A stretch of 64,000 nt of DNA, from the NCBI GenBank assembly GCA_036630325.1, contig CP142735.1, forward strand, positions 1 through 64,000, read 5' to 3'. The position numbers and the translations under genes were made by a program. How positions within the stretch are numbered: the first letter of the stretch is position 1; each line of letters begins with the position of its first letter. This DNA comes from Vairimorpha necatrix. Its lineage: Eukaryota. The notes below the pieces were generated by a model. The model saw nothing but the letters and a program-made list of their open reading frames with translations, was not told where the DNA came from and did not search any database. Of the stretch, positions 3,001-61,304 are shown in pieces.

Positions 3001-3663
3001 TAACCTACCTACCTAACCTACCTACCTACCTACCTACCTAACCTACCTACCTAACCTACCTACCTACCTACCTACCTAACCTACCTAACCTACCTACCTA
3101 CCTAACCTACCTACCTACCTAACCTACCTACCTACCCTAACCACCTACCTACCTAACCACCTAACCTACCTACCTACCTACCTACCTACCTACCTAACCT
3201 ACCTACCTACCTACCTACCCTACCTACTACCTACCTACCTAACCTACTAACCTACCTACCTACCTACCTACCTAACCTACCTACCTAACCTAACCTAACC
3301 TACCTACCTAACCTACTACCTAACCTAACCTACCTACCTACCTAACCTACCTAACTACCTACCTAACCTACCTAACCACCTACCTAACCACCTACCTAAC
3401 CTACCTACCTAACCTACCCTACCTAACCTACCTAACCTACCTAACCTACCTAACCTACCTAACCTACCTAACCTAACCTACCTACCTAACCTAACCTAAC
3501 CTAACCTAACCTAACCTAACCTACCTAACCTACCTAACCTACCTAACCTAACCTACCACCACCACCTACCTACCTACCTACCTACCTACCTAACCTACCT
3601 AACCTACCTAACCTAACTTACCTAACCTAACCTAACCTACCTAACCTACCCTACCTAACCTAC
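1..3663 (-). repeat. Telomeric array of interspersed TAGG and TTAGG units (CCTA/CCTAA on the + strand), degenerating in the proximal ~550 bp
   Basis: Continuous CCTA/CCTAA units from base 1. Variant units (ctactac, accacc, cccta) become frequent after ~3130. A C-rich + strand at the window start fits a left chromosome end. Confidence 0.97.
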
Positions 3664-13294: not shown

Positions 13295-15265
13295 TGAGGT
13301 ATTACCCGGGAGTTGGCCGTTCCTCAGATAGCATTCTATAATGCTTCTCCCGGGTATTAAAGTTTTATTATAATTAAAGTTGTATTATTAAATCTGCCTC
13401 CTTGGGCTTTATCTTACCTCTTCTGGGGATGCATTGATTGATACTGCTGATTTCTAGACTTCTCTGTTCTTCTTGACATATTTTGGTGGGGGTAAAAATA
13501 AAAAGAAAATATTTATAGAAAAATAAATTCTAGAAAATTCATTTGGAGGAAAATATAATAATGTGGTAAATAATACCACATACTACCTCCTCTAAAGGGC
13601 AGCGAATTAGAATACGGATTCCTCCGAAATCATCAAATAGTTCTTTTCGCCGTTTCCTAGTAATAGCTGGGTTGGATATTTTAAACCTCAAATCAAGGTA
13701 TGAGTTTAACTTATCATATTTGAGCTTCTCAGATTCACCGTTTAAATCATATCTACATATGCTAAATGGCATCTGCTGCATTTTATTTTTGAGGCAATGT
13801 TTTCTGAAAGTTCCATTATTTAATTTATTATTCTAATAACTATCATATTTAGATGTTGCCAAATCTTTTACCTGTTGATGGTTATCTTTAATTTTACAGG
13901 AGGCTTGCTTCTTTCTTTGTTATTTATTTTAATATTTCTTGAATATATATCATCTGATGGTATCGTATTCCCTGTCCTTTTCACAAAGTCAACTATATTA
14001 GTTAAGACTTTAGCTAATAGATTGTATATTTTTTATTCAAATTCCTTATAATACAATTATCTATATTATTTATTCTTTCATTTATACATTTCTGTTTATC
14101 GATGATTTTATTTTCTTTTTGTTTCTGAATTAATAGGCAGTCGGTTTTTTTATGTTTTTCATCCAATTCATAGTTAGGAATTTTTTTATCATTAACGATT
14201 TTCCTTCTTTTTTTATTTCTCTATCGTTTTCTTTTGGTTTTCGTAGACGACAATCTCGTGTATCATGAGATCTTGCTCGATGTATAGAGCACCACTTATC
14301 ACTTTTAAAGTATCTTCCTGTTTCTTCAGGTCTTTCATAATTCTCTTTCTTAGATATAAATTGAGATATTCGTGTCCCTTCCAGTTTCGCCTGTAACATA
14401 ATCATTTCTTCCAGATCTTGTGAATATTTTAATAGCTCGTCCATTCCCTTGTTTTTCATTCCTGATTTTAAAACTTCAATTAAATTTGATCTGCCTAATC
14501 CTCTATCAAAAATCTGTTTCAATCTAACATTAAATTCCTTTTTCGATAGGTTCAAAGATAGTCCGTATATTTCAATCATCGACTCTATTTTCTCATAGTA
14601 ATCTGCTATACTTCTATAATTTACCTGTTTAACAGTTTCCATCTCTGTTGATAATAAAGCTACATCATTTTTTGGATATCTAAATTCTAGTAGTTCTTTT
14701 TTTGTTTTTTGAAGCTTTTCTTATTTAGCTTATCTTTCACCTTTAAATCTAAAATCAAAGCATAGTAGATGAGTCCCATCTGCTCATCAGTCCATTTATT
14801 GGCCGTTCCTAGCTCTTCAAACAGCCTGAGATGCTTTATGGTGCAGTCTCGTTTTACATTTTTCAATTTTTTCTTTAACCAATATTGTAGTTCCTTCTAT
14901 GGTTTTATCAAATGTGATATATGCTTCATCAATATTTTGTTTCTCAGTATTATTACTTTTTTCTAATATTAATGAGCTCATTGAGGTATTACCCGGGAGT
15001 TGGCTGCTTCTCAGATAGCATTCTATAATGCTTCTCCCAGGTATTAAAGTTTTTTATAATTAAATTTGTATTATTAAATCTGCCTCAATGGGCTTTATCT
15101 TCCTCTTCTGGGGATGCAGTGATTGATACTGCTGATTTCTAGACTCCTCTGTTCTTCTTGACATATTTTGGTGGGGTAAAAATAAAAAGAAAATATTTAT
15201 AGAAAAATAAATTATAGAAAATTCATTTGGAGGGAAAATATAATAATGTGGTAAATAATACCACA
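13295..15265 (-). mobile_element. Non-autonomous LTR element (LTRs 13295-13580 and 14982-15265, TSD AATTC) with gag remnant
   Basis: ~285-bp TG...CA direct repeats with several mismatches, AATTC at 13290-13294 and 15266-15270, and PPT AGAGGAGGTAGTA at 13581-13593. Absent from copy 2 (empty site ~42984). Confidence 0.92.
14130..14642 (-). pseudogene. gag: Gag fragment with CxxHx4Hx4C zinc-knuckle variant
   Basis: Translation contains WCSIHRARSHDTRDC and lies inside the LTR element. Confidence 0.75.
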
Positions 15266-20929: not shown

Positions 20930-21370
20930 CCTCAGTTATTTATCATGATTTTCTTCTTCATCTTATTACATTTGTATATATATTGTCAAGTTTGGAAAAT
21001 CTAAAATTTAGATCTCTTAAATTCAAAATTATTGCATTTTAGACTAATTATTTTTTCATGATTTTCTTTTCAGCCTTATTGTATATATATATGTATATAG
21101 AATTTTCCTCATTTAAATATGAAAATTTCAAAACTCTAAAATTAGAAATTATGACATTTTAGACAAATATTTTTTCATGTTTTTTATCAGCTTCTTATTT
21201 TTTAAAAATGTGTATATATACTTGTCATCAATGAAAAAAGAAAATCAAAATTATGTCATTTTAGATAATTTATTTTTTCATGATTTTATTCTTATTCTTG
21301 ATGTTTGAATATATATACTTGTCATCCTTGGGATATTAAAAATTTGGAAGTTCAAAAAACAAAATTTTGA
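20930..21370. repeat. Degenerate tandem repeat, ~120-bp unit, about 4 copies
   Basis: Recurrent ttttcatgatttt...tatatat...aaaatt...gacattttagac motifs. Paralog at ~54300-54730. Confidence 0.55.
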
Positions 21371-27214: not shown

Positions 27215-28685
27215 GTACGATTATATGCATTTTCAGCTGTTCTTAATTTTTTCATATTTTGCAAGATTTGTCTTCTTATATATATACAAGAAGAAAATGA
27301 AAAAATAACAAATTCCATAAATGCTTTAAAAACAAAAAAAGATACACAAAAAGTACTTGTAAAACAATAATATGAATTTATATGTAGTCTTAGATGTTCT
27401 TAATTTTTTCATATTTTTCGAGATTTGTCTTCTTATATATATATATACAAGAAGGAGATGGAAAAATGCCAAATTTCATAAATGCTTTAAAAACAAAAAA
27501 AGATATTCAAAAAGTACTTGTATTACAATAATGTGTATTAATATGCATTTTCAGCTGTTCTTAATTTTTTCATATTTTGCAAGATTTGTCTTCTTATATA
27601 TATATATACAGGAAGGAGATGAAAAAATAACAAATCTTTTAAATCGCTCAAAAACAAATAAAGATACTCAAGTGTCACTTATATAACTATAATATGAATT
27701 TATAAGCATTTTCAGAAGTTCTAATTTTTGTATATTTTTCAAGATCTGTCGTCTTATATATATATATACAAGAAAGAGATGTAAAAATAACAAATTTCTT
27801 AAAAGCTTTAAAAACAAATAAAGAAACACAAAAAGTACCTGTATAACTATAATATGAATTTATAAGCATTTTCAGAAGTTCTTAATTTTTTCATATTTTT
27901 CAAGATTTGTCTTCTTATATATATATATACAAGAAAGAGATGTAAAAATAACAAATCTTTTAAATGCTTTAAAAACAAATAAAGAAACACAAAAAGTACC
28001 TGTATAACTATAATATGAATTTATATGTAGTCTGAGATGTACTTAATTTTTTTAATTTTTCAAGATCTGTCTTCTTATATATATATACAAGAAGGAGATG
28101 AAAAATGGCAAATTTCATAAATGCTTTAAAAACAATTAAAGTACCCAGGTGTCACTTATATAACAATAATATGAATTTATAAGCATTTTCAGAAGTTCTT
28201 AATTTTTTCATATTTTTCAAGATTTGTCTTCTTATATACATATATACAAGAAGGAGATGAAAAATGGCAAATTTCATAAATGCTTTAAAAACAATTAAAG
28301 TACCCAGGTGTCACTTATATAACAATAATATGAATTTATAAGCATTTTCAGAAGTTCTTAATTTTTTCATATTTTTCAAGATTTGTCTTCTTATATACAT
28401 ATATACAAGAAGGAGATGAAAAATGGCAAATTTCATAAATGCTTTAAAAACAATTAAAGTACCCAGGTGTCACTTATATAACAATAATATGAATTTATAA
28501 GCATTTTCAGAAGTTCTTAATTTTTTCATATTTTTCAAGATTTGTCTTCTTATATACATATATACAAGAAGGAGAAGAAAAAATAACAAATCTTTTAAAT
28601 GCTTTAAAATCAAATAAAGATACTCAAGTGTTGCTTATATAACAATAATATAGATTTATATGTAGTCTAAGATGTTCTAAATTTT
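27215..28685. repeat. Tandem satellite, ~159-bp unit, about 9 copies
   Basis: atgaattt starts near 27372, 27694, 27854, 28015, 28171, 28330 and 28489. Units starting at 28171, 28330 and 28489 are nearly identical. Confidence 0.95.
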
Positions 28686-45549: not shown

Positions 45550-48500
45550 TGTTGGGATAAAAACATGGGTTTATTTATTATAAAATATTTAAAGAAACAC
45601 GGTGTCAAATATATCAAAACCAGTACACTATATATTTGACACGTGTAGCACTTCCTACACTACCCCTCCTTTAAAAGTTTAACATGATTTCGACTCGCCG
45701 TAACTATTTTCCCACTGTCCAAGCAAACTTTAAATGAATGAAATTTTTGTTCTACAACTACTCCTTTTTCTTCCCATTTAGGTTCTAGTTTTCCTCTTAT
45801 AGGGAGAATTAAATAGTACCAGACTCTATCTCCTACCTTTATGGTGTCCTTATTATCAGCATTCTCTTTCCCACTCGTGTTATATTCACGTCTGTAGGCT
45901 TCTAAATTTTTAATGGCCTGTCTCTGATACTCTTCCTTTTCTTTTGAGGTCTTAATCCCTTCCTGAAGGTCCATATTATTAAGTGTCATTCCTGTGATAA
46001 GTTCTACTGGAGCGCAGCCTATAGCCCTATGGTAAGACTGCATATAGGCCTTGATCAACTTAGGAACGCATCTTGCCCAATCGAATTGCCCAAATTCCGT
46101 AATTTTCCTTAACTTAGAACCTATTGTTCTATTAAATCTCTCTACAAGCCCCGTGGTCGTAGGTTTATAGGGGGAACCATATTTCCAGATAAAGTTCTTT
46201 ACCTTTGCATATTCATCACAAATTTTATTTTTGAACTCTTTGCCATTATCAGTTAGAATGGCTTTCGGTACACCATATTTCCTGACTATATGTTTATCAA
46301 TCAAATGAACAACCGTATTCATATCCTTTGTATAAACCGGCACAACTTCTGCAATTTTTGAGAAATGGTCAATCATTGTCAATAAATACTTATATCCTTG
46401 CTCACTCTCCTTCAGAGGGCCTACCATGTCCAATTCCCAGATCTCTCCTAATTTATTAGCCACCACCGGTATAATATCCTTAAATTTTTTCTGTGGTTTT
46501 TCCTTTTGACAAACTTCACAATTTTCAATATAGTCTTCTATGTCTCTATTCATATGCTTCCATGAGTATTTTTGTCCAAGATTATACTTCATGTTCTGTT
46601 TTGATCCATGACCTAATAAATCATGATAAAACCTCATTAATGCCAATGTTCTCTCTTTTTTAATAATTTTCTTTTGTACTAAATTTATTTGATAAACCTT
46701 CTCTTCCTCCTTTTTAAATTCTCTGCTTAGGTGATCTGTATGATTCGATGGTCCTGTTATATACACAATATCAAAGTCATATTCTTGTAAAATCAACGAC
46801 CATCTAGCCAACCTGGCTTTAACATTTCTAGACTTGAACAGATATTTCAGAGCTTGATGATCAGTTTTTAATGTGAACTTGCCCAATAATAAATATTCTC
46901 TGAAGTGTTGGATGGATTTTATAACCGCCAATAGTTCTTGTTCCGTCGCGGAGTAATTCTTTTCTGTCTTCGAGTGTAAGGAGCTGTGATAAGAAACAAT
47001 CTTTTCTTCCCCTCCAATTATTTGTGCCAATGTAGCACCACATCCCTCGTTCGATGCATCTGTAGTCAAAATGAACTTATCCTTCAAATTTGGGATAGTC
47101 AACAAGGCCGTTCTCTTCATGGCCTGTTTTACCTCTTCAATATCCTTACGATATTTAGCATTTTGTTCCACATTTTTCCAAAAACAATCTGCTTCCTCAT
47201 CCTTGAGCCTGATTATGTCAAATAGTGGGCTAACCACCCTGTGACTGTTTTTTATGAATTTAGCACAATAATTATACAGTCCCAACAAAGATTGTAATTT
47301 CTTCTTACTTTTAGGAATGGGTAACTGTTGAATGCTCCTAACTCTTTCTTCGTCTACACCTATTCCCTCTTTTGATATTACATGACCTAAAATTTTTAAT
47401 TCAGTCTTTAAAAATTTGCATTTATCCTTATTAAGTTTAAGCCCTACCGACTTGAGCTTTTCTAATACCATTTGAACATCTCTCTTATGATCTTCTCTAG
47501 TTTTACTATATATGAGTATATCATCCATGTATACTACAACAAACTTAAATAAAAATTCCCTTAATATGTTATTCATCACCCGCTGAAATGTAGCTGGGCC
47601 ATTAACAAGTCCAAATGGCATTTTCATAAATTCAAATAAGCCTTCTCTACAGGCAAAAGCTGTCTTCTCAATATCACACGGCGCCATATCTATTTGGTGA
47701 TAGCCCGATTCAGCGTCTAATTTAGTAAAATACGTTGCGCCCTCTAAAGCATTGATAAACTCTTCTACGCGGGGCATTGGATAAGCGTCTCTGATGGTCG
47801 CATCATTTAATCTTCTATAATCCACGCATAACCTATGATCTCCATTCTTTTTTGGGACTATAATTATCGGACTTCGCCATGCGCTTACACTGGGTCTAAC
47901 TATTCCAAGTTTTAGATACTCTTTCACTATTTGGGATGCAATATTCTCTTTTGCTCCACCCAACTTGTATAACTGAGATAGTATCGGGTTATCATCCTTT
48001 GTAATAATTTTATGATACCCTATGGCTTTCCCCCTTGCCAAATATCCAGATTCGATTTCCATTTTGTTGTTTCCAAATTTTAAATTTATCTTATACTTAT
48101 CAAGTAACCCTTGTCCTATTATGCAGGGAATTGTGATATCCCTAGTAATAATGAATCTATCTTCAAAAATCATCCCTTCAATTTTAATATTGATTACTGT
48201 TTCCCCAATGATCTTTATTTTCGATCCATTGGCTGCCCTAAGCTGTTGTTTCGAACGATTAACAACGGTTTTCTTTGGCAAAAGCTCTGGCCTAATTAAA
48301 TTTATATCGGCTCCTGTATCGATGAGCACTTTAAAATTAACTTCTGAATCATTTAATGACGCTTTCTTTAGCGTAGTTCTATTATCCTTTAATTTGGTAA
48401 CGGAGTAATTGTAAATAAATTCCTTTGAATCTGTCTTCTTGGTTTCTCCTTCTTCTTTAACTTGACCTTTCTTAGCTTCTCTTTTATCTCTACGGAAGCT

Positions 48501-49253
48501 ATTGAATTTACACTTTGACACAATATGGCCTTTCTTTCCGCAAATAAAACAATTCATTTTAAAAGTCCTCTCGGGAGTCAAATTCTTTTTATCGTGATCC
48601 CTGAAGCTAGTCGCTTTGACATTCATATAACCTCCATGCAAAAATTCTGTATAACGTACCTCGTCCATTGCGGTAACATTCCTTAAGGCCTTATATATGC
48701 ACTCCCAAGATAATGAGTTCTTCTTGTTTATTAAAACCGCGTTTGCTAAATAATCTGGAATTCCTTTCAGTACAAAGGCAATCAATATGCCTTCTGGAAC
48801 ATTCCCTTTACGCGCCAATCCCGCCATCTTATCTAGATAGTTGGCGAGAGATCCACCATGATATTTAAGGACGGAAAGTTTATCTATACTCACTTTCATC
48901 GCCATGGGACCCACAAATCTTTCTTGGAACAAGGCTTTCAGTCTTTCAAGTGAAAGACCAATTGGCTGCGCTATTAGCCAATCCCTCGCCTCATCTTTTA
49001 ACGATATTCTGAAATGGAGTACAAGTTTACTCTCACTGTACTCCATCAGCCTCCCCACATCCTGCAAGTCCTCCAAGAACTGCTGTGGATCATCTTTCTC
49101 TTCATTTCTGAAAATGAGAAAGTTCCTGACGTTGTCGCCAAATTGTTGGGATAAAAACATGGGTTTATTTATTATAAAATATTTAAAGAAACACGGTGTC
49201 AAATATATCAAAACCAGTACACTATATATTTGACACGTGTAGCACTTCCTACA
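45550..49253 (-). mobile_element. Intact Ty3/Gypsy LTR retrotransposon, 3704 bp, identical 110-bp LTRs, TSD GATAC
   Basis: LTRs 45550-45659 and 49144-49253, GATAC at 45545-45549 and 49254-49258, PBS TGGCGACAACG ending at 49140, PPT AGGAGGGGTAG. Empty site with a single GATAC at 17815-17819. Confidence 0.98.
45660..49160 (-). CDS. gag-pol: Single-ORF Gag-Pol polyprotein (Gag, CCHC, PR, RT, RNase H, integrase)
   Basis: CFICGKKGHIVSKC, LIDTGA, YMDD, TDAS, H..LGH...CEVC, and D-D-E in WELD/LTDNG/VERFN. Start placed at the CCC-preceded ATG inside the 5' LTR (MFLSQQ). Confidence 0.95.
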   Translation of the reverse strand: MFLSQQFGDNVRNFLIFRNEEKDDPQQFLEDLQDVGRLMEYSESKLVLHFRISLKDEARDWLIAQPIGLSLERLKALFQERFVGPMAMKVSIDKLSVLKYHGGSLANYLDKMAGLARKGNVPEGILIAFVLKGIPDYLANAVLINKKNSLSWECIYKALRNVTAMDEVRYTEFLHGGYMNVKATSFRDHDKKNLTPERTFKMNCFICGKKGHIVSKCKFNSFRRDKREAKKGQVKEEGETKKTDSKEFIYNYSVTKLKDNRTTLKKASLNDSEVNFKVLIDTGADINLIRPELLPKKTVVNRSKQQLRAANGSKIKIIGETVINIKIEGMIFEDRFIITRDITIPCIIGQGLLDKYKINLKFGNNKMEIESGYLARGKAIGYHKIITKDDNPILSQLYKLGGAKENIASQIVKEYLKLGIVRPSVSAWRSPIIIVPKKNGDHRLCVDYRRLNDATIRDAYPMPRVEEFINALEGATYFTKLDAESGYHQIDMAPCDIEKTAFACREGLFEFMKMPFGLVNGPATFQRVMNNILREFLFKFVVVYMDDILIYSKTREDHKRDVQMVLEKLKSVGLKLNKDKCKFLKTELKILGHVISKEGIGVDEERVRSIQQLPIPKSKKKLQSLLGLYNYCAKFIKNSHRVVSPLFDIIRLKDEEADCFWKNVEQNAKYRKDIEEVKQAMKRTALLTIPNLKDKFILTTDASNEGCGATLAQIIGGEEKIVSYHSSLHSKTEKNYSATEQELLAVIKSIQHFREYLLLGKFTLKTDHQALKYLFKSRNVKARLARWSLILQEYDFDIVYITGPSNHTDHLSREFKKEEEKVYQINLVQKKIIKKERTLALMRFYHDLLGHGSKQNMKYNLGQKYSWKHMNRDIEDYIENCEVCQKEKPQKKFKDIIPVVANKLGEIWELDMVGPLKESEQGYKYLLTMIDHFSKIAEVVPVYTKDMNTVVHLIDKHIVRKYGVPKAILTDNGKEFKNKICDEYAKVKNFIWKYGSPYKPTTTGLVERFNRTIGSKLRKITEFGQFDWARCVPKLIKAYMQSYHRAIGCAPVELITGMTLNNMDLQEGIKTSKEKEEYQRQAIKNLEAYRREYNTSGKENADNKDTIKVGDRVWYYLILPIRGKLEPKWEEKGVVVEQKFHSFKVCLDSGKIVTASRNHVKLLKEG

Positions 49254-50351
49254 GATACTTTTTATCATTTTTAAATAAAAATTTAAAAAATAAATACTTA
49301 AAATTATTATATTTTAACATAATGTATTTTTTAACTAAGAATTTATCTTATTTTTGATTTTACACAGATACATTGAATCATGCGGCTTTACTTAATATTC
49401 CAAACTTATAACAAGTTGATTATATTAATCTGACATGAATTATACGTATTAAGCTTATTTAATAAGGTTTTCTAAGGTAATTTTCACATTTATTTCTTGT
49501 CAAGATTTTATCTACAACTGATATTTATTAAAAGATTACATCTCTATTTAAGAATCAGTAATACTTTAGCAACACGAAATTCATAAAGATTATCAAATGT
49601 GTAAACTTATGTTTTGTTATACGATAGAAGACTAGGTTAGGATTTACGGAACAAAAAAAAACAATAACAGTATTACTAATTTAGTAATGATATAATAGAA
49701 CTTTGTCCTCTACACGAGGAAATAAGCTATTGATTCATCTAAAATAAATATTGGACTGTTTCTTCAAAGAAATTTATTCTTTTATTTTGTAAATATTAAT
49801 TTCTCGCATATATATATTTTCGCCCTTAATATTATAAATGGCTTGAACATAACATCAAAATTGTTTTTGTAAGAAACGACATTTCGATAATCTTTCATCT
49901 AGGGATTTGTTTTTCTGCCAAATTAAAATTGTATACGAAATTTAGTTTTAGAAATTATAAAAAAGACGAAACGATTTAATTCGTTTCCTGCATACTTTAT
50001 ATTGTGTCAAAAATGCTATTAAAGTAAAATAATGTGTATATAAAGTCCTTTTCCTTTTTTATAGAACATAAATAAAATATGTGCATTTTTTATAAAAATT
50101 TAATTTATAACCAAATCAATCCCAGAAAGGTTCAGTTAAAATTTCGCTCTGCAATTATTAAATCCATGTATAATATCTATTGTAAACGAATAAATTTGAT
50201 TTAGTGTACAGTTTTATAACTATTTTTAGATCTGTAATCTTTTTATTTGTTTTCTTTTCTATTATATATATTGTCCTCTTCTCTATTTGAATTGTGTATG
50301 ATTTAGATAGTCTAATTATTTGCAAACAGAAAGTATATCTATCAGGGGTGT

Positions 50352-52544
50352 TGTTACCGGCTGTGTTGCACACACCAATAATCAGACTAAAACTGAAAGA
50401 TGAAACAGTTGATAATGATCTGAAACCATCTATGTTTCAGATCCGAAACTAAAACTATTTAAGAATCTTAAATAGACAAGATATGCCAAATAAATATAGT
50501 TCTTCTTCTAATAAAAAGCCTTCTTCAATAACCAGCTCTCCTTCTGGTAACACTGGCGACAACTATTCGAAATCCAACGAATTGGGCCACCTACTAGAAA
50601 AATTAGGGATATCTACTAACACAATGGTGAAATTCAACGGTACCCAAGGCGAGAATGCATGGGTCTGGATTAATCAATTTAAATACCTCGAGGGAGAATG
50701 GAATGATATAAAACTGCTCAACTACATTAAGAGATACTTAGGGGAATCAGCTCTCCTATGGTATGAGGCTGTAATTGAAGACGAGGTGGAAGGATATATG
50801 GAATTCAAACAGAAATTTCTAACAAAATATGGGAAAGAAGAATTCCGGGAGAATATTAATCCCATTAAAATGCTTTATAAGAGACTATACTCTGGACCTG
50901 TAAATATGAAAATTGAAAACTTTATATACGAACTAATGAAGCTTAACAAGAAAGCAGGAGTTAGCGTGTCTGAAATTACGGAGGAGTTGGCTAGATATTT
51001 CCCACCGTCACTTAAAGAAAAGGTGGAAGAGGCAACGTCATGGGACGTTGTACTAAAGATTTATGAGAGAAATCATAAATTTATTGAGAGTTCAAGGCAG
51101 AGACCTGAACAGAATAGGCCAAGGGAAGCAAGGACTTCAAGGCCATATACTACAAGGACAAGAGAGAGTCTAAGAAAGTTAGTATGTTATAAGTGTGGGG
51201 GCGAACACTTATTTAAAGACTGCGAGAAACACGAAGGGAAAAAGGTTTTTTTAATCGAGGCAGATCCAGTGTCAAAAGACACGAACGATACTACGATCTT
51301 AGGGTCCATCGACCGCGACGTAGTAAGAACGCGTTTGGACTCGGGGGAGTCCAACCCATTTATCGAAAGCAATTTTGTTGGCAGAAAGAAACTAAGAAAG
51401 GTAAAAGAAGTACATTTTAATCAAACTATTCCACAGAGTATAGATATAACAATGTCTATACAAGAAGATGGACGGATTAAAAAGTGGGCAAGTGCAGAAA
51501 CAGCTCAGACGTCACTTCTGTATGGAAGTTTGAGGTTTTCCGAGACGAGTACTTCGATTAACAAGCAATTCGATGGCCAGCAAAATAACTTTCTCGAGAA
51601 TGATAGAAAAAATCTAAACATTGAACGAGCAAATAAAAGCGTGGGGAGTGACGAATATACGAGCACCAAGGACGCACATAGTTCGATCGAAAAGGAAAGA
51701 GACGATGGTGTGCGCCTATACAATGAACTCACAAAAGTAATGGAAACACGGACTAAAGAAGTAGGTCAATCCCCCGTGATTAAAGAATGTTCTACATACT
51801 TAAGTGTAGCGGAATTGAACCACCAACTCGACCCGGGAAAACGATACTATCTAACTCTTCTGAGGAAAGAAATTTACGAGCACGAAGTGAAGAAACAAAC
51901 ATTTTTATGTGTGAATGAAAGCGTGGTGAGCGAGGAAGTGGCGATCGTGCAGATCGTGCTTATCGAAATAATATCTAAAATAGATGAAGGTATGAGACCA
52001 ATACTGACCTGGAAGTTACTATTTATGGTTCTGCACTGTGAGTTGAATAACATTATAATAAAACTTAAAAGAATAATATTTAATATCCTCAAGAAGCCAC
52101 GTAAAAAGTTCCTAATGTCTTACCATACATTATATAGAAATGAAAGATTGGATAAAATATATATAGGACCCTACATAGTCACGAAAAACAAACTAAAAGG
52201 AGCCTATGAAGTAAGGAGTCTTGAAGATGGAATAGAACACTCTATAAACCGAAACTATTTTGTAGTATATAATAAAGATGACGATATATTGGAGGATATA
52301 ACCTCTTCCCAGGAAGTGAAGCCTTGTTCTAAGGAGGGGAGAGTGTTACCGGCTGTGTTGCACACACCAATAATCAGACTAAAACTGAAAGATGAAACAG
52401 TTGATAATGATCTGAAACCATCTATGTTTCAGATCCGAAACTAAAACTATTTAAGAATCTTAAATAGACAAGATATGCCAAATAAATATAGTTCTTCTTC
52501 TAATAAAAAGCCTTCTTCAATAACCAGCTCTCCTTCTGGTAACA
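50352..52544 (+). mobile_element. Young non-autonomous Gag-bearing LTR element, identical 201-bp LTRs, TSD GGTGT
   Basis: LTRs 50352-50552 and 52344-52544 (TGTTACC...GGTAACA), PBS TGGCGACAAC at 50554, PPT AAGGAGGGGAGAG at 52331-52343. Empty site at 18913-18917. Confidence 0.96.
50483..52444 (+). CDS. gag: Gag-like protein with zinc knuckle, degenerate protease motif, unassigned middle region and integrase C-terminal GPY-like tail; no RT, RNase H or DDE core
   Basis: YLGESALLWY, CYKCGGEHLFKDC, RLDSGE and KIYIGPYIV...GAYEV in a 653-codon open frame. Confidence 0.8.
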   Translation: MPNKYSSSSNKKPSSITSSPSGNTGDNYSKSNELGHLLEKLGISTNTMVKFNGTQGENAWVWINQFKYLEGEWNDIKLLNYIKRYLGESALLWYEAVIEDEVEGYMEFKQKFLTKYGKEEFRENINPIKMLYKRLYSGPVNMKIENFIYELMKLNKKAGVSVSEITEELARYFPPSLKEKVEEATSWDVVLKIYERNHKFIESSRQRPEQNRPREARTSRPYTTRTRESLRKLVCYKCGGEHLFKDCEKHEGKKVFLIEADPVSKDTNDTTILGSIDRDVVRTRLDSGESNPFIESNFVGRKKLRKVKEVHFNQTIPQSIDITMSIQEDGRIKKWASAETAQTSLLYGSLRFSETSTSINKQFDGQQNNFLENDRKNLNIERANKSVGSDEYTSTKDAHSSIEKERDDGVRLYNELTKVMETRTKEVGQSPVIKECSTYLSVAELNHQLDPGKRYYLTLLRKEIYEHEVKKQTFLCVNESVVSEEVAIVQIVLIEIISKIDEGMRPILTWKLLFMVLHCELNNIIIKLKRIIFNILKKPRKKFLMSYHTLYRNERLDKIYIGPYIVTKNKLKGAYEVRSLEDGIEHSINRNYFVVYNKDDDILEDITSSQEVKPCSKEGRVLPAVLHTPIIRLKLKDETVDNDLKPSMFQIRN

Positions 52545-55434
52545 GGTGTAATTCAAAAATATACCAATTCAATTGTTTTTTAGATATGTTATATTTAAAT
52601 GATCATTCAGCCCATCTTATGAAAAATATTTTCATCTCTGGAATATTCAAAAAATATAGTATCCTAAAATGAAAATTTTTCATTGTTAAGATTATATAAT
52701 TTTAAAATAAAATGTTAACGTAATGAAATCTAAACATATCAAATATTAAATTGCGGAATTATATTACTCTATTGTATATATATCGTATAAATTATGATTT
52801 TATTTATAATCAAAATCACAAATAATTATAATCTCGTGTTTCTGACTTTATATTTCCTTTATTTTTTAACTTTTGTTCATTTTACTATCTTAAATAACTG
52901 ATTATTTGTCTTCTATTTTTGGTTTTGTAAGTCAAAATTACTATATCAGTCCTATAGAATATTAATAATAGTATATTCACACTGACTTTCTATTCTTAGA
53001 GGATAAATGAAACGTGAATTTTATTTTTTTATTTGTTGCTAATTTTGTTTTTAGGTTTTACTATTATGTTGCCAAAGAGAACAATGATTAGATTGTTTAC
53101 AATACTTAATTTTCATCGATTGGGTTTTTTAATATAAATTGTTTATTCTTTTTTTATATGAAATATTTTTTCTTTATTAATTAATCGAAATTATCATAAC
53201 TCAGAAACTTAAATTATCTTATGTTATATTATTAAAATACGTTTTTGTTCATTATGTTAAGTCTGTACGAATAAAATATATGATGTAATTGATTCTAGGT
53301 TATTTCATTCTTTTATACATAGATACATATGATTGTTGCAATAAATATGAACTTATCAATATGATTTTTATTTCTTAGTATATTTATGTATATTTATATT
53401 AAGCACTTGGCATCTTAATTATATCTACACATATCTTAGTAAAAGCTTATAAATTTTGTTGCCATTTTGAATTTCTAGTATCATATAATTTTTATTTTAT
53501 TTTATATATAGACTTCGAGGTTAATTTACGCCCTAAAAAGGGAATATTGTTGTTTTCTTTAATGTTTTCATTTTTTCTGTGCTTTTCGATCCTCAATGTT
53601 TAATCTTTCCTAGTCTTTCCTTAAAAGTGTCTTGTTTAAGTAAAATGCTAATGACAAATTGGAGATATTTAAAATACAAGAAACATTTGTTATATAAATC
53701 TTTATATGTCAACATTACAGATATATACCTGCTCATTTTGCCATCTAAAGTCAATGATTTATTCAGAATATCGATGTGCCAGTCAATAATGGCTAATACT
53801 TAGGACAGGGCACGTCTCAGTGTGCAAATGACTCGTCACACATAGATTATTCAATTTAGTAGTATTAATGGAAATCTGTTCAAAATACAAATTTCTTGGA
53901 TCGTCTAAGTTCGGTTATATAGATAAATATTTCCAAAACAATGTATTATAAAGTGTTTTTTGAATAAACGATTGAACCAATTTTTATTGTTTCTCTATAA
54001 TACATACTAACTTTACTTTGTTTGCAAGCGATAGATATAATTATAATTTCCCAATCGTAAAAAATATTAAGTCTACTTTTACAGTTTTGTAGTTACAATA
54101 CTGTTTATTCTGAATTTTATTGATGGACTATTTTCGTCTTGTCGATATTATTATCTCTTCTTAAATATATATACATATACAAATACATCTCTTCTTAAAA
54201 ATTAGTTGGTCGTTTAAAATGTCAAGAATAATTACTTTTAAGCCTTCATGATATAGCTAAGTTCTTTTGTAATGATCTATTTTGGGGTGATTAATTTCCT
54301 CAGTTACTTATCATGATTTTCTTCTCTTTCTTATTACATTGTATATTTACTTGTCATCTTTGAAAAATCTAAAATTTAAATCTCTAAAATTCAAAATTAT
54401 GACATTTTAGACCAATTATTTTTTCAAGATTTTCTTTCAGTCTTATGTATATATATATGTATATAGAAATTTCTTCATTATAAAATGAAAATTTGAAAAC
54501 TCATAAATTAGAAATTATTGCATTCACGACAAATATTTTTTCATGATTTTTATCAATTTCTTATTTTTTATAAATGTGTATATATTCTTTTCATCAATAA
54601 AAAAAGAAAATCAAAATTATGTCATTTAAGATAATTTATTTTTTCATATTTTATTCTTATTCTTGATGTTTGAATATATATACTTGTCATCCTTGGAATA
54701 TTAAAAATTTGGAAGTTCAAAAAACATAATTTTGATTTATAGCCTTTATTTAATTTAAAATTTCGTATTCTTGGCGAGTAGGAGAGAAGATGAAATCTTA
54801 TACATGAACTCAAAAGCAATTGAGTTAACAATCCAATTGATATAGGGTATTATTATTCACTTAACTTCTACCAAATACTTTCGCTGCACTATCTCCGATG
54901 TAACCATTTAGATTTGATGAGAATATTTTTATATACAAGCCTCTAATCGCATCATTAAATCAATAAATATATTAAAATGAAGATTTTAAAACCCCTGTAT
55001 AAATTTATCGTATTAATATAATGTCTATATAAAAATAAATCATCTAGATCCCAGATGGCTCTTCTCTTACACAGAACACTAAAAGCAAACTTATTAAACT
55101 TCTTTGTAAGCAATGAAATAATTGAACAGATCTCCATCTTATACTATATCTTGTTTTTATAAAAACAAACTTCATAAATTTCTACATCAAGAGTGCCATA
55201 ATCGGCTTTTAGGTCCCTATAGAATATACAGCTATGGTATTTTGAAACACAAAAGGACAAATTATATGTATTAAAATTTGAATTGTAAATATATTTCAGA
55301 AATTACTAATCAATTCATTTCAAGAATTACTTTCATATATTTGTTTAGTCTATCAATTTTGAAATATTATATTTAGTGACGTCTGTATGCCCAACAGCAT
55401 CTATTTCTACACAGCGAATATAAATTTTAATTTT

Positions 55435-55674: not shown

Positions 55675-56184
55675 GTTGGTATAACCAACCAGGATCGACT
55701 TACTATAGTTGAGAATGAAAAACTAAGAAAATATGACCTTCTTGCAAATGAACTGGGACTAATACATAAATCCCGGACAAGAATAGTTCCTTATGTAATG
55801 ACATGGGATGGAGTGGTGACCAAATATCACAGAAAGTACATCAAGGAGCTAGAAATCCAACCCTACCTGGAAGCATATATCCAGTCTATTGTGATGAAGA
55901 AGACTCTAGAGTCCATCTCTTTGGAACGACGACGAGGATACGATCAGGAGGATGCAGGAGAAGAAGAAGTGGCTAGAGCTGTAAGCGCACTAGCGAATAT
56001 GGCGACTGTTAAAGAAGTGGTGTCGGCAAAGGGGAATGAAGCTGCTAAAGTGAAGTTGGAAAACATTAATAATTCCACAGAAACCAAAGTCTGTGAAGAG
56101 CTGAATCCCATGAGCGATACCGGGGAAAGCTGTGCTATGAATATCTAAACATAATTGAAAATTAACTCAATAAATCTTTTATTG
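55675..56184 (+). mobile_element. 5'-truncated RLE-type non-LTR retrotransposon (family A) with 13-bp TSD TTATGTTTTCTTA
   Basis: Translates VGITNQDRLTIVENEKLRKYDLLANELG...PYVMTWDG (restriction-like endonuclease C-terminus). TSD at 55662-55674 and 56185-56197, empty site ~22305-22317. Confidence 0.9.
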
Positions 56185-56770: not shown

Positions 56771-57095
56771 CAACATATAAAAGATTTATTAAGTTAATTT
56801 ATCATGTAAGTTAGATTAGCACAGTTTCCCTCGGTATCGCTCACTAGATTCGGCTCTTCATAGACTTTGGTTTATGTGGAATTATTTATGTTTTTCAACT
56901 CCAAATTTTTAGCTTCATTCTCCTATACTGACATCGCTTGTTCAACAGTCGCCATATTCGCTAGTGCGCTTAAAGCTCTAGTTACTTCCTCCTCTCCTGC
57001 ATAATCTTTATCGTATCTTGTTCGTCGTTCCAAAGAGATGGACTCTGAAGTTTTCTTCATCACATTAGACTGAATGTATGCTTCCAGAAATGTTT
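56771..57095 (-). mobile_element. 3' fragment of RLE non-LTR family A (paralog of 22887-23205)
   Basis: Inverted homolog of 55860-56184. Confidence 0.8.
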
Positions 57096-57472
57096 AGATT
57101 TCTGCAGAATGCAAATAAGATTTTAAAATATTAATATATATGTACACAATAATAATATAGTTTAGAACTAATGAATTCCTAAACTTTTTAAATTTTACAA
57201 CTGTAACTATTATTTTGGAAAAAATATTTTATTTTGACATTACGATTGATTTTTAGTAAAAATTTAATTAAATTTTGAATTTCTTCAAAAATGTCAAGAG
57301 AATTTAAAAAATTTAAAGGCCGTATTAAATTTCAAAAAATATTATCTGGTCATCTTTTTAATTGAGTTGTTACTCTGTAGACAAAGAAAAATTAATAATA
57401 AATTTCAAATAAAGATCATTGAACAAAGAGTAATTAACATTTTTGTTTAGTTTTTAATTGTATATTTTTTAA

Positions 57473-58429
57473 TTAATTGGCTAATGTCAGCTTTAACGGA
57501 AAAATTTCGATATAGGGTTTTTTTTGATTTTTTTGCCATTTTTTTAAAAAAATGGAGGAGAGAAAATGTTGAGGAAGAAACAAAAATAACAAATAAAATA
57601 AATAATTTAATAATGCGTGGAAAACCGGGGCAGAAGAGTTCCTTTGTAGCATATACCTGAATAAATAAAGTTTAGCACTACGAGCAGATCTGTTTCTATT
57701 TGGAATAGAATTTTTTAAAGAGCGCCAATTACCTTCTATGGTATTGGTATGAACTCCGGTTATTGGGTCTCTAAAGTTTAGAGAATGATTTACCATCAGA
57801 TGTTGGTTAAATATTAAGCCCAGATTACGGTAGGCTCTCCGCATATCGCTATAAATTGTACTATTTCTGTCTACATACTTTAACAAAAGATTAGTTAGCG
57901 TTATTTGGTCTCTTTTCTCAATATATATAAATATAATTCGGCGTTGTATGGTACGTTTGACCATACCAAAACACCAGAAACCTTTTACTGGTTGGCCTCT
58001 ATTATATTTATTTTTACCAATCTTAGATTCATCAATTTCTACAATAGTATTATTACCACCCATAATTCCGATACTGGCCAGATATGTCTCATAAATATTA
58101 ATTTCTTTTAACTTTTTTAGTATACTAGATATTGATTGCCGAGAACAACCTAGGATTTGACAGATAGACTTACGAGAATATCCTAGAATCCACATATTAA
58201 GTATCTGCAATACTGTAATATGGTCTAGTCTAGAATTCTGAAAGAAAGTATCTTTCCATACAGAAACATTAAATTTGCATTTAGTCCATTTACATCTCAG
58301 GATCATGCCTTTTTTGTCCTTTATTTTCATTTCTGACCCACAAGATTCACATTTGCGTTTCGCTTTTTCTATTTTCAATTCATAGTATATATTTTCAAGT
58401 TTTTCTCTTGTTTGAATTCTCTCCTCCAT
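57473..58429 (-). CDS. Merlin/ISXO2-like DDE transposase with N-terminal zinc ribbon
   Basis: CESC...CKWTKC, VEIDESKIG, IYSD, VNHS, HTNTIEGNW. Confidence 0.92.
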   Translation of the reverse strand: MEERIQTREKLENIYYELKIEKAKRKCESCGSEMKIKDKKGMILRCKWTKCKFNVSVWKDTFFQNSRLDHITVLQILNMWILGYSRKSICQILGCSRQSISSILKKLKEINIYETYLASIGIMGGNNTIVEIDESKIGKNKYNRGQPVKGFWCFGMVKRTIQRRIIFIYIEKRDQITLTNLLLKYVDRNSTIYSDMRRAYRNLGLIFNQHLMVNHSLNFRDPITGVHTNTIEGNWRSLKNSIPNRNRSARSAKLYLFRYMLQRNSSAPVFHALLNYLFYLLFLFLPQHFLSSIFLKKWQKNQKKPYIEIFPLKLTLAN

Positions 58430-58503
58430 TTTTTTAAAAAGGGGGCAAAAAAATCAAAAAAAAACCCTATATCGAAATTTTTCCGTTAAAGCGGACTTTA
58501 GCC
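57479..58503 (-). mobile_element. Merlin (IS1595/ISXO2-like) DNA transposon 1, ~86-bp TIRs, 8-bp TSD AATTAATT
   Basis: GGCTAA...TTAGCC termini, TIRs 57479-57564 and 58417-58503, TSD at 57471-57478 and 58504-58511. Empty site at 23583-23590. Confidence 0.95.
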
Positions 58504-58627
58504 AATTAATTTATGCTAAAAATTTGTTTTATTTTTGCTATTAAATCCTTTCAATTCAAAATCTACGCTCTTTTCTATATTTTGTTTATTTTAAATTTCC
58601 CTCTTAAAATATTAAATAAAATTTTTT

Positions 58628-59668
58628 GGTTGATCGGACCGAAATTCACCTTTTTTTGATGTCTTCAAATTTTCATTTTTTCACCCCAAAAAATGAAATT
58701 CCAAAAGTTGAGGAAAAGAGAGATTGAAGAGAAAATAATACAACAAATAAAATCTTTACAACTTAGCGGTTGTAAAAAATGCAACGAAGAGCTTACATCA
58801 TACACAAAAAATAAGTATGAATATATGAAATGTACAAATAAAATATGTCCACTATATAAAAAGCATATTAATGTTTGGAAAGGTACAATATTTAGTCATG
58901 TAAAAATTTCTAAAGTGAAATTTGTCGAGGTTATTGACCTCTGGTTATCAAAATGTAGTGTGGATACTATTTCATACGTAACCAGAATTGATAAAAAAGT
59001 TATATGGAGAATATTGAAAAAAACTAGTGAAGTACTAGTTAAAAAATTCTACCAAAACATTAAATATATTGGAAATCCTGGTGAAACAGTTGAAATGGAT
59101 GAGTCAAAGATTGGAAAGAATAAATATAATCGTGGACATCCAGTAGGAGGAGTTTGGCTCTTTGGAGTAGTTGAAAGAGATGGTAAAAAAAGAGTCATAT
59201 TATTTCAAGTTAGTGATCATACTAAAAGTACGTTAAAATTTCACATTAAAAATAGTGTAAAAGAAGGTAGCAAATTATATTCTGACTGTTGGAAGGGATA
59301 TACGGGCATTCAAAATGAAGGTTATAGTCACCACACTGTAAACCACTCTAAATATTTTTAAGATCCCGAGACAGGAATACATACTAATACTATCGAAGGA
59401 ACATGGTCTGGTTTAAAACAGCATATACCATACAGATGTAGAACAAGGAAATTAATTAATAGGTATTTAGTGAGGTACATGTTAATAAAAAACTATAATA
59501 CTCATCCAGTAATAAGTTGTTTTAACGTAATTTATGATGAAAAATTAAATATTTAAAGCTTTTATTCTTTTTTTGTTTTCTTCCTCAACTTTTGGAATTT
59601 CATTTTTTGGGGTGAAAAAATGAAAATTTGAAGACATCAAAAAAAGGTGAATTTCGGTCCGAAGGTCC
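58628..59668 (+). mobile_element. Merlin DNA transposon 2, 88-bp TIRs, 9-bp TSD AAATTTTTT
   Basis: TIRs 58628-58715 and 59581-59668 match apart from terminal positions 3-6. Empty site ~23699-23707. Confidence 0.94.
58693..59556 (+). pseudogene. Merlin transposase with one in-frame nonsense codon (TAA at 59359-59361) before the catalytic E
   Basis: VEMDESKIG, LYSDCWKGY, then VNHSKYF*DPETGIHTNTIEGTW in the same frame to TAA at 59554-59556. Confidence 0.92.
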
Positions 59669-61304
59669 AAATTTTTTTGTTTATGGGCAATGATAAATCA
59701 AAGATTGGATTGGTGCAATAAAGAGATAAGTTAAGTTGGAATGACAATGAAAATTTGCGGAATATATAGTATTTTTAAAAATAGAGTATTATAAAATATC
59801 TAATCCAAAGCAGTCAATTTTTTTCTGCTAGTGTAATAATCTTTATATTTTATGCTCATGATCTTTTTTATCAGCAAATGATTATTATACGCATTATATA
59901 CTTCAGAAATTTGAGTACCGTTAGTTATACCAACTTCAATGGACAAGACCTTATAGCGCTTGCGCATCCCACGTGTCGCGAGAAGTTGAAAAGTTGGAAT
60001 ACAGATGAATACTCAAATTTCCGAAGTATTAAATTGTATAATAATCATTACTGATAAATAAGATCATGAGCATAACATAAAAAAATTACATTAACAGTGA
60101 AAAAACACGGGCCGTCACAAGAATTGTAATGCAGCTTTTTTCTATAATTATAATAGAAGCACTTCCGCTACATGTCCTTTACCCAAAATTAGTCATATAA
60201 TCTATTGATTGATAAACATAAGGTTTCTCCGGTCATATATTTCTAGTCCTTAGAAAATAATGATTTTAATGATCGCATTTATACCTAATTATTGCCAATC
60301 AAACATAAGTATGATTATTACATAATCATTATGATGAATGTATGCGAAAACTTCTATAGATATAAGTATACCATTATCTGAATAAATGTATCAATTATCA
60401 AAGGGGATATTAGAATTAAGATTAAACATAAGAATATTAGATTATTTGGAAACAGTTTTACTTAGAATAAAGGTGTAATTTTAGACATTTCGAGTATTTA
60501 AATAATCCTACTTACTAATATTATTCATAGAGCATCAGTCTGATGAATTGTGTAATATGTGTAAACAAGAATATTTTGATGATTATTCTAGTTTTTTTTT
60601 TATGATTATGAGAATTTAAATAGATAATTTATTAAAACTTTTAGAATGTTTAAGATTTTATATGTCCCTTCTATATACTGATATAAAAAATGTGAAAATT
60701 AAAAACGTTATCATATTTAATGTTATAACACTATACGATTAACAATGAATATTTTTAATTAAGAAGTATTTATAAATATTCCTAATTCTCAATTTGCTTT
60801 TAATTTAAAACAGATGTATAAGGATAAATTCTAGAAATATCGAAAACAAAATATTAAACAAAAAAGTATTTTTTATATATATTAGAAATTGTTATTAATG
60901 AGGTTTCTATATAAAAAAATACAAGAAATATTAGTTCAAAATGTTGAGTCCTTTTTACTTTTTTTGATCTACTACTGATTTAACGAGTATATATTATACG
61001 ATCAGATATAAAATATTTTCTCTAATAGAAAGATACTAACATAACAATCAGATATATATATATATATATATATATATATTTCGTTTTAATTGAAGGTGGT
61101 CTAATCATCTCCTGAACAGGTTTGCCAATATTATCATATATTAAATGTAAGCTTTTCTAAAACTATCCTTTATTAAAATTAATTTTATCTCGTAAAATCA
61201 TGAGATATCTTAAGATCAAGATGTTATAACTAATTTTATAATATCCTATATTGGGTCGCAAAATTCTATGTTATACTACCATAAGATATCGTTGGAATAT
61301 AAAT

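Follow-up and report, generated by a model that had tools for sequence, protein, structure and literature searches.

As reported, the RLG_Quinta elements of wheat and oat carry one non-autonomous ORF, in which a GAG is joined to a domain of unknown function, and they share LTR ends, PBS and polypurine tract (PPT) with the single-ORF autonomous RLG_Cereba, with which they recombine by template switching (PMC11302176). The TR-GAG elements of plants are shorter than 4 kb, have LTRs, a PBS, a PPT and a 5-bp TSD, occur in several copies, and encode one ORF with Gag and a zinc knuckle while apparently being active (PMC4350172). Similarly, RLG_Sabrina_SA, RLG_WHAM and the non-autonomous RLC_Angela of wheat are described as having co-evolved for a long time with an autonomous partner and as retaining Gag without RT or integrase (IN), and the coding sequence of the Angela derivatives is degenerate (PMC9744471). 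Among the non-autonomous elements of plants, modular recombination is reported to be frequent (bioRxiv 10.64898/2026.03.01.708851). For microsporidia, Ty3/gypsy elements with one polyprotein in the order PR-RT-RH-IN have been reported, and the main text of that report does not contain the words 'nonautonomous' or 'non-autonomous' (PMC4202319). A literature search of titles and abstracts, with subscription journals and supplements largely outside its scope, returned no microsporidian non-autonomous Gag element and no in-frame fusion of Gag to degenerate pol.

In this study, we analyzed a 64-kb window (the whole stretch of DNA examined) of Vairimorpha necatrix, which contains a 2193-bp element at 50352-52544 on the plus strand. 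Similar to Quinta, this element has a single non-autonomous ORF in which Gag is followed by an additional domain, its partner encodes all enzymes in a single ORF and shares its PBS, PPT and LTR termini, and the two lineages would recombine by template switching. In contrast, the Quinta GAG is a diverged, lineage-specific variant and the Quinta DUF1 is described as having no known origin, whereas the Gag here is near-identical to that of the helper, is swapped with it and groups with full-length copies, and its additional domain can be traced back to rearranged pol; moreover, a microsporidian takes the place of wheat or oat as host (PMC11302176). Similar to TR-GAG, the element is below 4 kb, has LTRs, a PBS, a PPT and a 5-bp TSD, exists in more than one copy (eight young ones), encodes a single Gag-like ORF with a knuckle, and is apparently active. 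However, a lack of similarity to PR, RT, RNase H and IN was a selection criterion for TR-GAGs, whereas pol relics are detectable here by blastp against the partner (E 1e-12 and 8e-48), and the TR-GAG1 account gives no partner, whereas here one is present in the same genome (PMC4350172). As in the wheat elements, Gag is retained without RT or IN, the remaining coding sequence is degenerate, and co-evolution with the partner appears long. Sabrina_SA and WHAM keep an intact GAG-protease ORF, whereas the protease here is halved; the whole coding sequence of Angela is degenerate, whereas here degenerate pol stays in frame with Gag (PMC9744471).

The element shows the features of a Ty3/gypsy LTR retrotransposon, namely LTRs with TG...CA ends, a PBS, a PPT and a short TSD. 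Its 5′ LTR (50352-50552) and 3′ LTR (52344-52544) are 201 nt long and 100% identical, and they are flanked by a perfect 5-bp TSD, GGTGT (50347-50351 and 52545-52549). The PBS (50554-50563) matches the 3′ end of host tRNA-Ser, CCA included, over 10 nt; two tRNA-Ser genes of the host fit this 10-mer, and a reversed control pattern gave 0 matches. The PPT (52331-52343) is the same in the full-length copy L031. Within this frame, a single ORF of 653 aa (50483-52444, plus strand) joins Gag in frame with a rearranged pol relic: its ATG at 50483 lies inside the 5′ LTR at LTR position 132, with AATAAA hexamers at LTR positions 138 and 159, it continues across the PBS and PPT, and its stop (52442-52444) lies inside the 3′ LTR, 58 nt upstream of the AATAAA. 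The empty site is spanned by joined contigs in three of the four public runs examined (X1, X2 and X3, of which X1 may be the source sample). Moreover, contigs of these three runs also cover portions of the element middle, so the insertion is not an assembly artefact; it is real, polymorphic and not fixed. Collectively, the identical LTRs, the clean TSD, the uninterrupted LTR-to-LTR frame and the recent mobility that a sequence-only reading had described are all borne out.

The genome, 15 Mb in 12 contigs, encodes polar tube protein 2, which identifies it as microsporidian. A distance of about 50 kb separates the element from a telomere-like array (1-3663), in which TAACC units are mixed with TACC units (TTAGG and TAGG when read on the opposite strand). 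At 45550-49253 on the minus strand, 1.1 kb upstream of the short element, there is another Ty3/gypsy element, unrelated and intact, whose two 110-bp LTRs are identical and whose 1217-codon frame encodes Gag, PR, RT, RH and IN; its PBS starts with the same tRNA-Ser-type 10-mer; it was ruled out as the helper because its LTR is different. The window also contains two adjoining Merlin/IS1595-type transposase elements (57471-58511 and 58613-59683), whose terminal inverted repeats measure 82 and 103 nt, and a 287-nt inverted repeat (55851-56137 and 56817-57103, 83%) around 679 nt that overlaps a 162-codon ORF without a Pfam family. About nine tandem copies of a 161-bp unit occupy 27221-28685, and a 119-bp unit recurs at 21003-21245, with a similar one near 54340-54735. 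A 196-codon frame at 14130-14720 on the minus strand, which has a CX2HX4HX4C knuckle and no Pfam family, is probably a gag fragment.

To find further copies and a partner with the same LTR, as the sequence-only reading had proposed, the host's own genome was searched at the DNA level, and at least 53 matches were obtained (40 of 70 candidates scored). The element is not a single copy: eight young short copies of 2193-2460 bp were found, and in seven of them the two LTRs are identical and the 5-bp TSD is perfect. Five of the eight have an uninterrupted LTR-to-LTR ORF (653, 687, 745, 714 and 714 aa), while the ORF is broken in L002, L003 and L010. In L002 and L003, the same one-base gap, near codon 460, leaves a first ORF of 468 aa and a predicted 3′ UTR of 705 nt; since these two copies lie at different loci, each with an identical LTR pair, this broken version has apparently transposed at least once. 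We considered a programmed frameshift at the gap and rejected it, as no slippery heptamer is visible there. The frame of L010 is broken by a one-base gap at codon ~224-232, and its LTRs are 99% identical. L006 and L008 have a one-base change in the PBS, yet their LTRs are identical and their TSDs perfect.

One intact full-length copy was found, L031, a 4026-bp element with a 1267-aa Gag-PR-RT-RH-IN ORF, in which Pfam places PR at 272-376, RT at 481-640, RH at 704-827 and IN at 863-1041, in agreement with the domain order of microsporidian elements (PMC4202319). The window copy is 94% identical to L031 in the LTR, 92% over nt 1-1060 and 94% over nt 1800-2193. L031 is thus likely the helper of the short copies, judging from the sequence comparison, and the dependence on an autonomous element that had been predicted now has a candidate partner. 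The ORF of L031 also begins and ends within its LTRs; the LTR-to-LTR frame is inherited from the helper and is not peculiar to the short element. The family is small, with about 15 internal copies found in the 15-Mb genome. Among the full-length copies, L033 and L034 are broken. L032 and L040 are recombinants between short and full-length elements, and the short-type middle is also carried by L012, L049 and L036, which are old and decayed. Of 15 additional LTR loci that were inspected, seven consist of a solo LTR flanked by a perfect 5-bp TSD. The old short copy in L012 (504-2642) has a third middle haplotype, ~71% identical to the others, and the first 140 bases of its LTR resemble the sister family (82% over the LTR), which suggests a past switch of helper. 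In L063 (574-3096), a related family is represented by a 2.5-kb element that contains Gag, PR, an RT N-terminus and an integrase tail. Its RT breaks off at nearly the same position (approximately helper aa 535-556), and it is possibly an independent short derivative.

Pfam assigned no family to the 653-aa protein at E values up to 1, and a word-index search of 5.8 billion proteins of 359-1143 aa gave no match. Structure prediction was informative for the Gag portion. An AlphaFold2 model of aa 40-252 built from 33 sequences has a mean pLDDT of 87.3 and shows a two-lobed helical capsid domain at about aa 40-205 (50600-51097). Foldseek ranked the PNMA2 and Arc capsids highest for this model, at probabilities of 0.97-1.0 and E values from 2e-3 to 2e-2, with no match at E 1e-3 or better, and relatives carry Retrotrans_gag. 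Based on the model, the capsid fold is predicted to be of the Ty3/gypsy type and intact. The Gag-CCHC reading holds for the presence of a zinc knuckle (aa 235-247, 51185-51223), and the spacing, read from the sequence and identical in L031, is corrected to CX2CX3HX4C. The region around it with the conserved Gag/PR junction (aa 232-270) has a dN/dS of 0.22 (p 0.004). For the whole protein, a model from five sequences only has a mean pLDDT of 31.8, with values below 50 across all of aa 199-653.

The middle of the ORF can be read piecewise against the helper. The N-terminal half of an aspartic protease (aa 261-309, 51263-51409) corresponds to helper aa 261-309; the DSG motif, previously noted as weak, is a real relic of the protease active site whose C-terminal half is missing, and the catalytic Asp is changed to Gly in four of the five open-frame copies (all but the window copy). 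It is followed by a segment from upstream of the RT (aa 312-330, 51416-51472; helper aa 439-457; z 7.8 in haplotype B, 7.2 jointly) and by 58 family-specific codons (aa 331-388, 51473-51646), for which the best helper diagonal reaches a z of 3.7 only, the search of the host's genome gave no match beyond the element family, and dN/dS is 0.76, not different from 1. A relic of the RT N-terminus (aa 389-463, 51647-51871) corresponds to helper aa 466-540 (blastp E 1e-12; 43% aa and 59% nt identity). The next two assignments are weak, with z values of 4.0-4.9: 20 codons (aa 464-483, 51872-51931) match at best RNase H aa 746-765 (joint z 4.0, second best 3.4), and aa 484-507 (51932-52003), an early portion of the 'hydrophobic stretch', probably repeat RT aa 467-490 once more (joint z 4.9, against 4.1 for the second best). 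A further RT piece (aa 508-538, 52004-52090) corresponds to helper RT aa 550-580 (z 6.0 in L007, 5.5 jointly). Next to it, the basic island KKPRKKF (aa 537-545, 52091-52117; integrase aa 916-924) is identical to L031 at 25 of 28 nt and is kept with synonymous changes in haplotypes A, B and C and in the sister family; its basic pattern suggests a possible role in nuclear localisation. A central polypurine tract as the reason for this island was rejected, since the island is not purine-only and its third positions vary. Finally, the integrase C-terminal tail (aa 555 onward, 52145-52343; helper aa 1166 onward) is near-identical to the helper (87.5% aa over 96 aa; 94% nt). The earlier suggestion of an integrase GPY-like tail agrees with this assignment; its IGPY is presumably the motif labelled GPY/F. 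A diverged tail type is present in four other copies, in which the GPY motif is lost and dN/dS is 1.68, not significant; the codon fit of this type against the helper was saturated and was discarded.

The main middle pieces lie on in-frame diagonals to L031 (z 5.5-11.6), and 60-nt windows matching L031 at 33 or more of 60 positions are in the coding frame in 8 of 8 cases in L001 and 11 of 12 in L007. The longer copies L006-L008 and L010 have a further 58-codon unit with a second RT copy, and the RT N-terminus is represented up to three times in the middle. Alignment to L031 shows no RT catalytic motif, RNase H or integrase core in the window copy, in agreement with Pfam and with the sequence-only reading, so that the intact PR, RT, RNase H and integrase core of an autonomous LTR retrotransposon are lacking. 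The middle matches only family copies and other RTs in the host's own genome, and no host gene. In 1.84 billion proteins, none of 42 matches had its best stretch in aa 335-525, the best stretches being Gag-PR or the tail, and the best ESM Atlas score for aa 310-560 was 0.79, from integrase-labelled clusters and at chance level. The hydrophobic stretch is real in the window copy and belongs to one haplotype only: the Kyte-Doolittle 19-residue maximum is 1.72 in the window haplotype versus 0.90 in L007 and L008, and T at second codon positions of aa 455-548 amounts to 0.45 versus 0.28 in haplotype B. Collectively, the alignments indicate that the middle is mostly an in-frame patchwork of the helper's own pol, and mostly not cargo. 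Most of the ~250 aa formerly left without assignment can now be attributed to it, and ~85 residues (331-388, 464-483 and 546-554) have no firm helper match. The element is therefore not Gag-only, since pol relics are present, and this pol debris, which out of frame would have spoken against a maintained ORF, lies in the coding frame.

To reveal the history of these parts, trees of gag and of the RT relic were compared. The middle haplotypes are 20-45% apart and form a block-wise mosaic among copies with almost identical gag. In the gag tree (16 rows), short copies join full-length ones three times: L001-type copies group with L031 (100/100), L012 groups with L034 (100/99), and L010 lies beside L033 in a group without resolution. 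In the RT-relic tree (15 rows; 160 columns, midpoint-rooted, with L012 left out because the segment is missing), all 10 rows from short and recombinant copies fall into a single clade (100/100), separate from the five full-length ones. The RT relic is 59-62% identical to L031 at the nucleotide level versus 52-54% to the sister family. These comparisons indicate that the middle has a single origin and that gag, LTR and tail segments have been swapped with full-length copies. What persists in this lineage is thus the scrambled middle, whereas helpers provide fresh versions of gag, LTR and tail, and the tail of the window copy, being near-identical to the helper, has been exchanged recently. Because gag is exchanged with full-length copies, its conservation cannot be credited to the short element alone; of the claim that the element supplies its own capsid, the intact capsid stands, while selection on the short element need not follow.

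Between the middles of L001 and L007, 215 differences over 239 codons are accompanied by 0 stops and 0 frameshifting gaps, whereas at least 10.9 stops are expected from their substitution pattern (P ~2e-5). The broken full-length copies have 6, 6 and 13 breaks per 195, 124 and 205 differences. Five longer gaps occur among the short copies, one of 174 nt and four summing to 93 nt. These results indicate, at the level of sequence, that the open frame is under selection, as had been suspected from its length. At the protein level, dN/dS was obtained by maximum likelihood from pairwise fits of two haplotypes over several segments, in which patchy exchange with the helper RT could lower the values. 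It is 0.69-0.86 in the first half (aa 310-442), not different from 1, and 1.22 in the first RT relic; in contrast, it is 0.35-0.42 for aa 455-548 (p 0.0006-0.01) and 0.38-0.40 for the core 464-533 (p ~0.01). For comparison, dN/dS is 0.27 between gag types and 0.05 between the pol of the helper and that of the sister family. The signal sought over the whole middle is thus confined to its second half, where the values of about 0.4 point to moderate amino-acid constraint and to some protein-level effect.

Based on these observations, we consider it probable that the element is a satellite, one member of a non-autonomous subfamily within a microsporidian family of single-ORF Ty3/gypsy elements, and that its frame is kept open mainly in cis. 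The short element retains the LTRs, the tRNA-Ser PBS, the PPT and the intact Gag of an L031-type partner, and the alignments indicate that its ORF otherwise consists of an in-frame pol patchwork, old and rearranged, in which no catalytic core survives. The satellite RNA would be packaged together with helper RNA and be copied and integrated in trans by the helper's RT and integrase, template switching would recombine satellite and helper, and the conserved Gag/PR junction could be the site where the helper's protease releases Gag. The frame would be kept open mainly by a filter that acts on the RNA in cis, and the middle would then be mostly an in-frame spacer. AATAAA lies 49-58 nt behind the stop in open copies, and the predicted 3′ UTR of broken copies is 705-1495 nt; an early stop would therefore create a 3′ UTR of 0.7-1.5 kb, likely a target of UPF1-type decay. 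Such a filter acts in cis and needs no protein cis-preference, which makes it easier to select than a shared protein; Ty1 proteins are reported to show no cis-preference (PMC3945221). A UPF1 gene with helicase motifs is present in the genome, a search of the genome for Upf2 gave no match, as did its controls, and NMD would have to operate in this host. However, SMG1C is reported as lost in Microsporidia (PMC5709506), the broken version of L002 and L003 has apparently moved, and L010 is broken with 99% identical LTRs. Moreover, avoidance of stops alone does not explain a dN/dS of about 0.4 in aa 455-548. Given the satellite reading, RNA surveillance is by a little the probable cause of the open frame, a needed function of the tail is possible but doubtful, and other causes are unlikely. 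Escape from RNAi through the divergent middle, considered in view of a Piwi-domain gene in the genome, was set aside, since the gag and LTR sequences have remained near-identical to those of the helper.

The constraint on the second half is also what a functional tail would predict, in which the frame keeps Gag joined to the KKPRKK island, the helical second half and the integrase tail and helps satellite particles reach the nucleus, a membrane or the helper's integrase. The core dN/dS in aa 464-533 agrees with this, and the island is the best-conserved part over three haplotypes (26 of 30 columns in a 30-nt window holding the island end), varies synonymously and is changed in the frameshifted L002. 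In addition, second codon positions of haplotype A show 21 changes to T and 5 from T, versus 11 and 11 at third positions (Fisher p 0.034, post hoc, with the direction inferred from the helper). However, the haplotypes differ by 30-45% here and do not have hydrophobicity in common, pLDDT is below 50 over aa 199-653 (with only five sequences), the ESM Atlas score is at chance level, and the diverged tail type, without a GPY motif, has the non-significant dN/dS of 1.68; we regard this explanation as somewhat unlikely. A bolder reading, which we consider unlikely, is the birth of a new domain from scrambled pol debris, in which the repeated RT fragments and the integrase island would form a selected extension of Gag, hydrophobic in one haplotype, that favors satellite RNA over the helper while gag and LTRs are renewed from the active helper. 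The intact capsid fold, the LTR and PBS shared with the helper, and the eight young short copies against one intact full-length copy found could reflect a mutualistic Gag donor of the RLG_Quinta style, where Gag and Pol come from the helper at a ratio of 1:1 and additional capsid protein comes from the short elements, a model stated in PMC11302176 and PMC9744471. We hold it as a tentative possibility: gag groups with full-length copies, the dN/dS of 0.27 between gag types may have accrued in helpers, and the model gives no account of 400 codons staying open behind Gag. A role as Gag donor can nevertheless hold together with the satellite reading.

In contrast, the remaining explanations agree poorly with the data. 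Both ends of the element are 92-94% identical to L031, and short derivatives made by internal deletion exist in the genome, L063 resembling one in a related family, which would be expected if the element were an ordinary recent deletion of a full-length copy that is open by chance. However, its middle is rearranged, is only ~59-62% identical to the helper and is common to the old decayed copies L012, L049 and L036; with 0 stops against at least 10.9 expected, the frame test and the trees refute this origin, and we give it almost no credence. Captured foreign cargo, either a host gene or an envelope-like protein, would account for the lack of a Pfam family, the 58 codons without a helper assignment and the one hydrophobic window, and novel cargo had been proposed from the sequence. 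This proposal is not upheld, since most of the middle maps in frame to the protease, RT and integrase of the partner, its genome matches are family copies and other RTs only, and none of the 42 protein matches has its best stretch there; foreign cargo is thus highly improbable.

LTR elements that keep Gag and depend on a helper have been described in plants, and for the additional domain that follows their Gag no source is known. In the present element, the source can be read: it is the helper's pol, shuffled and kept in frame through up to 45% divergence. A long open transposon frame without a Pfam match therefore need not be cargo. If the new-domain route were true, it could explain the unexplained domains behind Gag in other non-autonomous elements. 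Furthermore, open and broken young copies occur side by side, which raises the question of whether translation-coupled RNA surveillance shapes microsporidian retroelements, and the same set of copies also makes it testable whether the short element is a parasite or a Gag donor.
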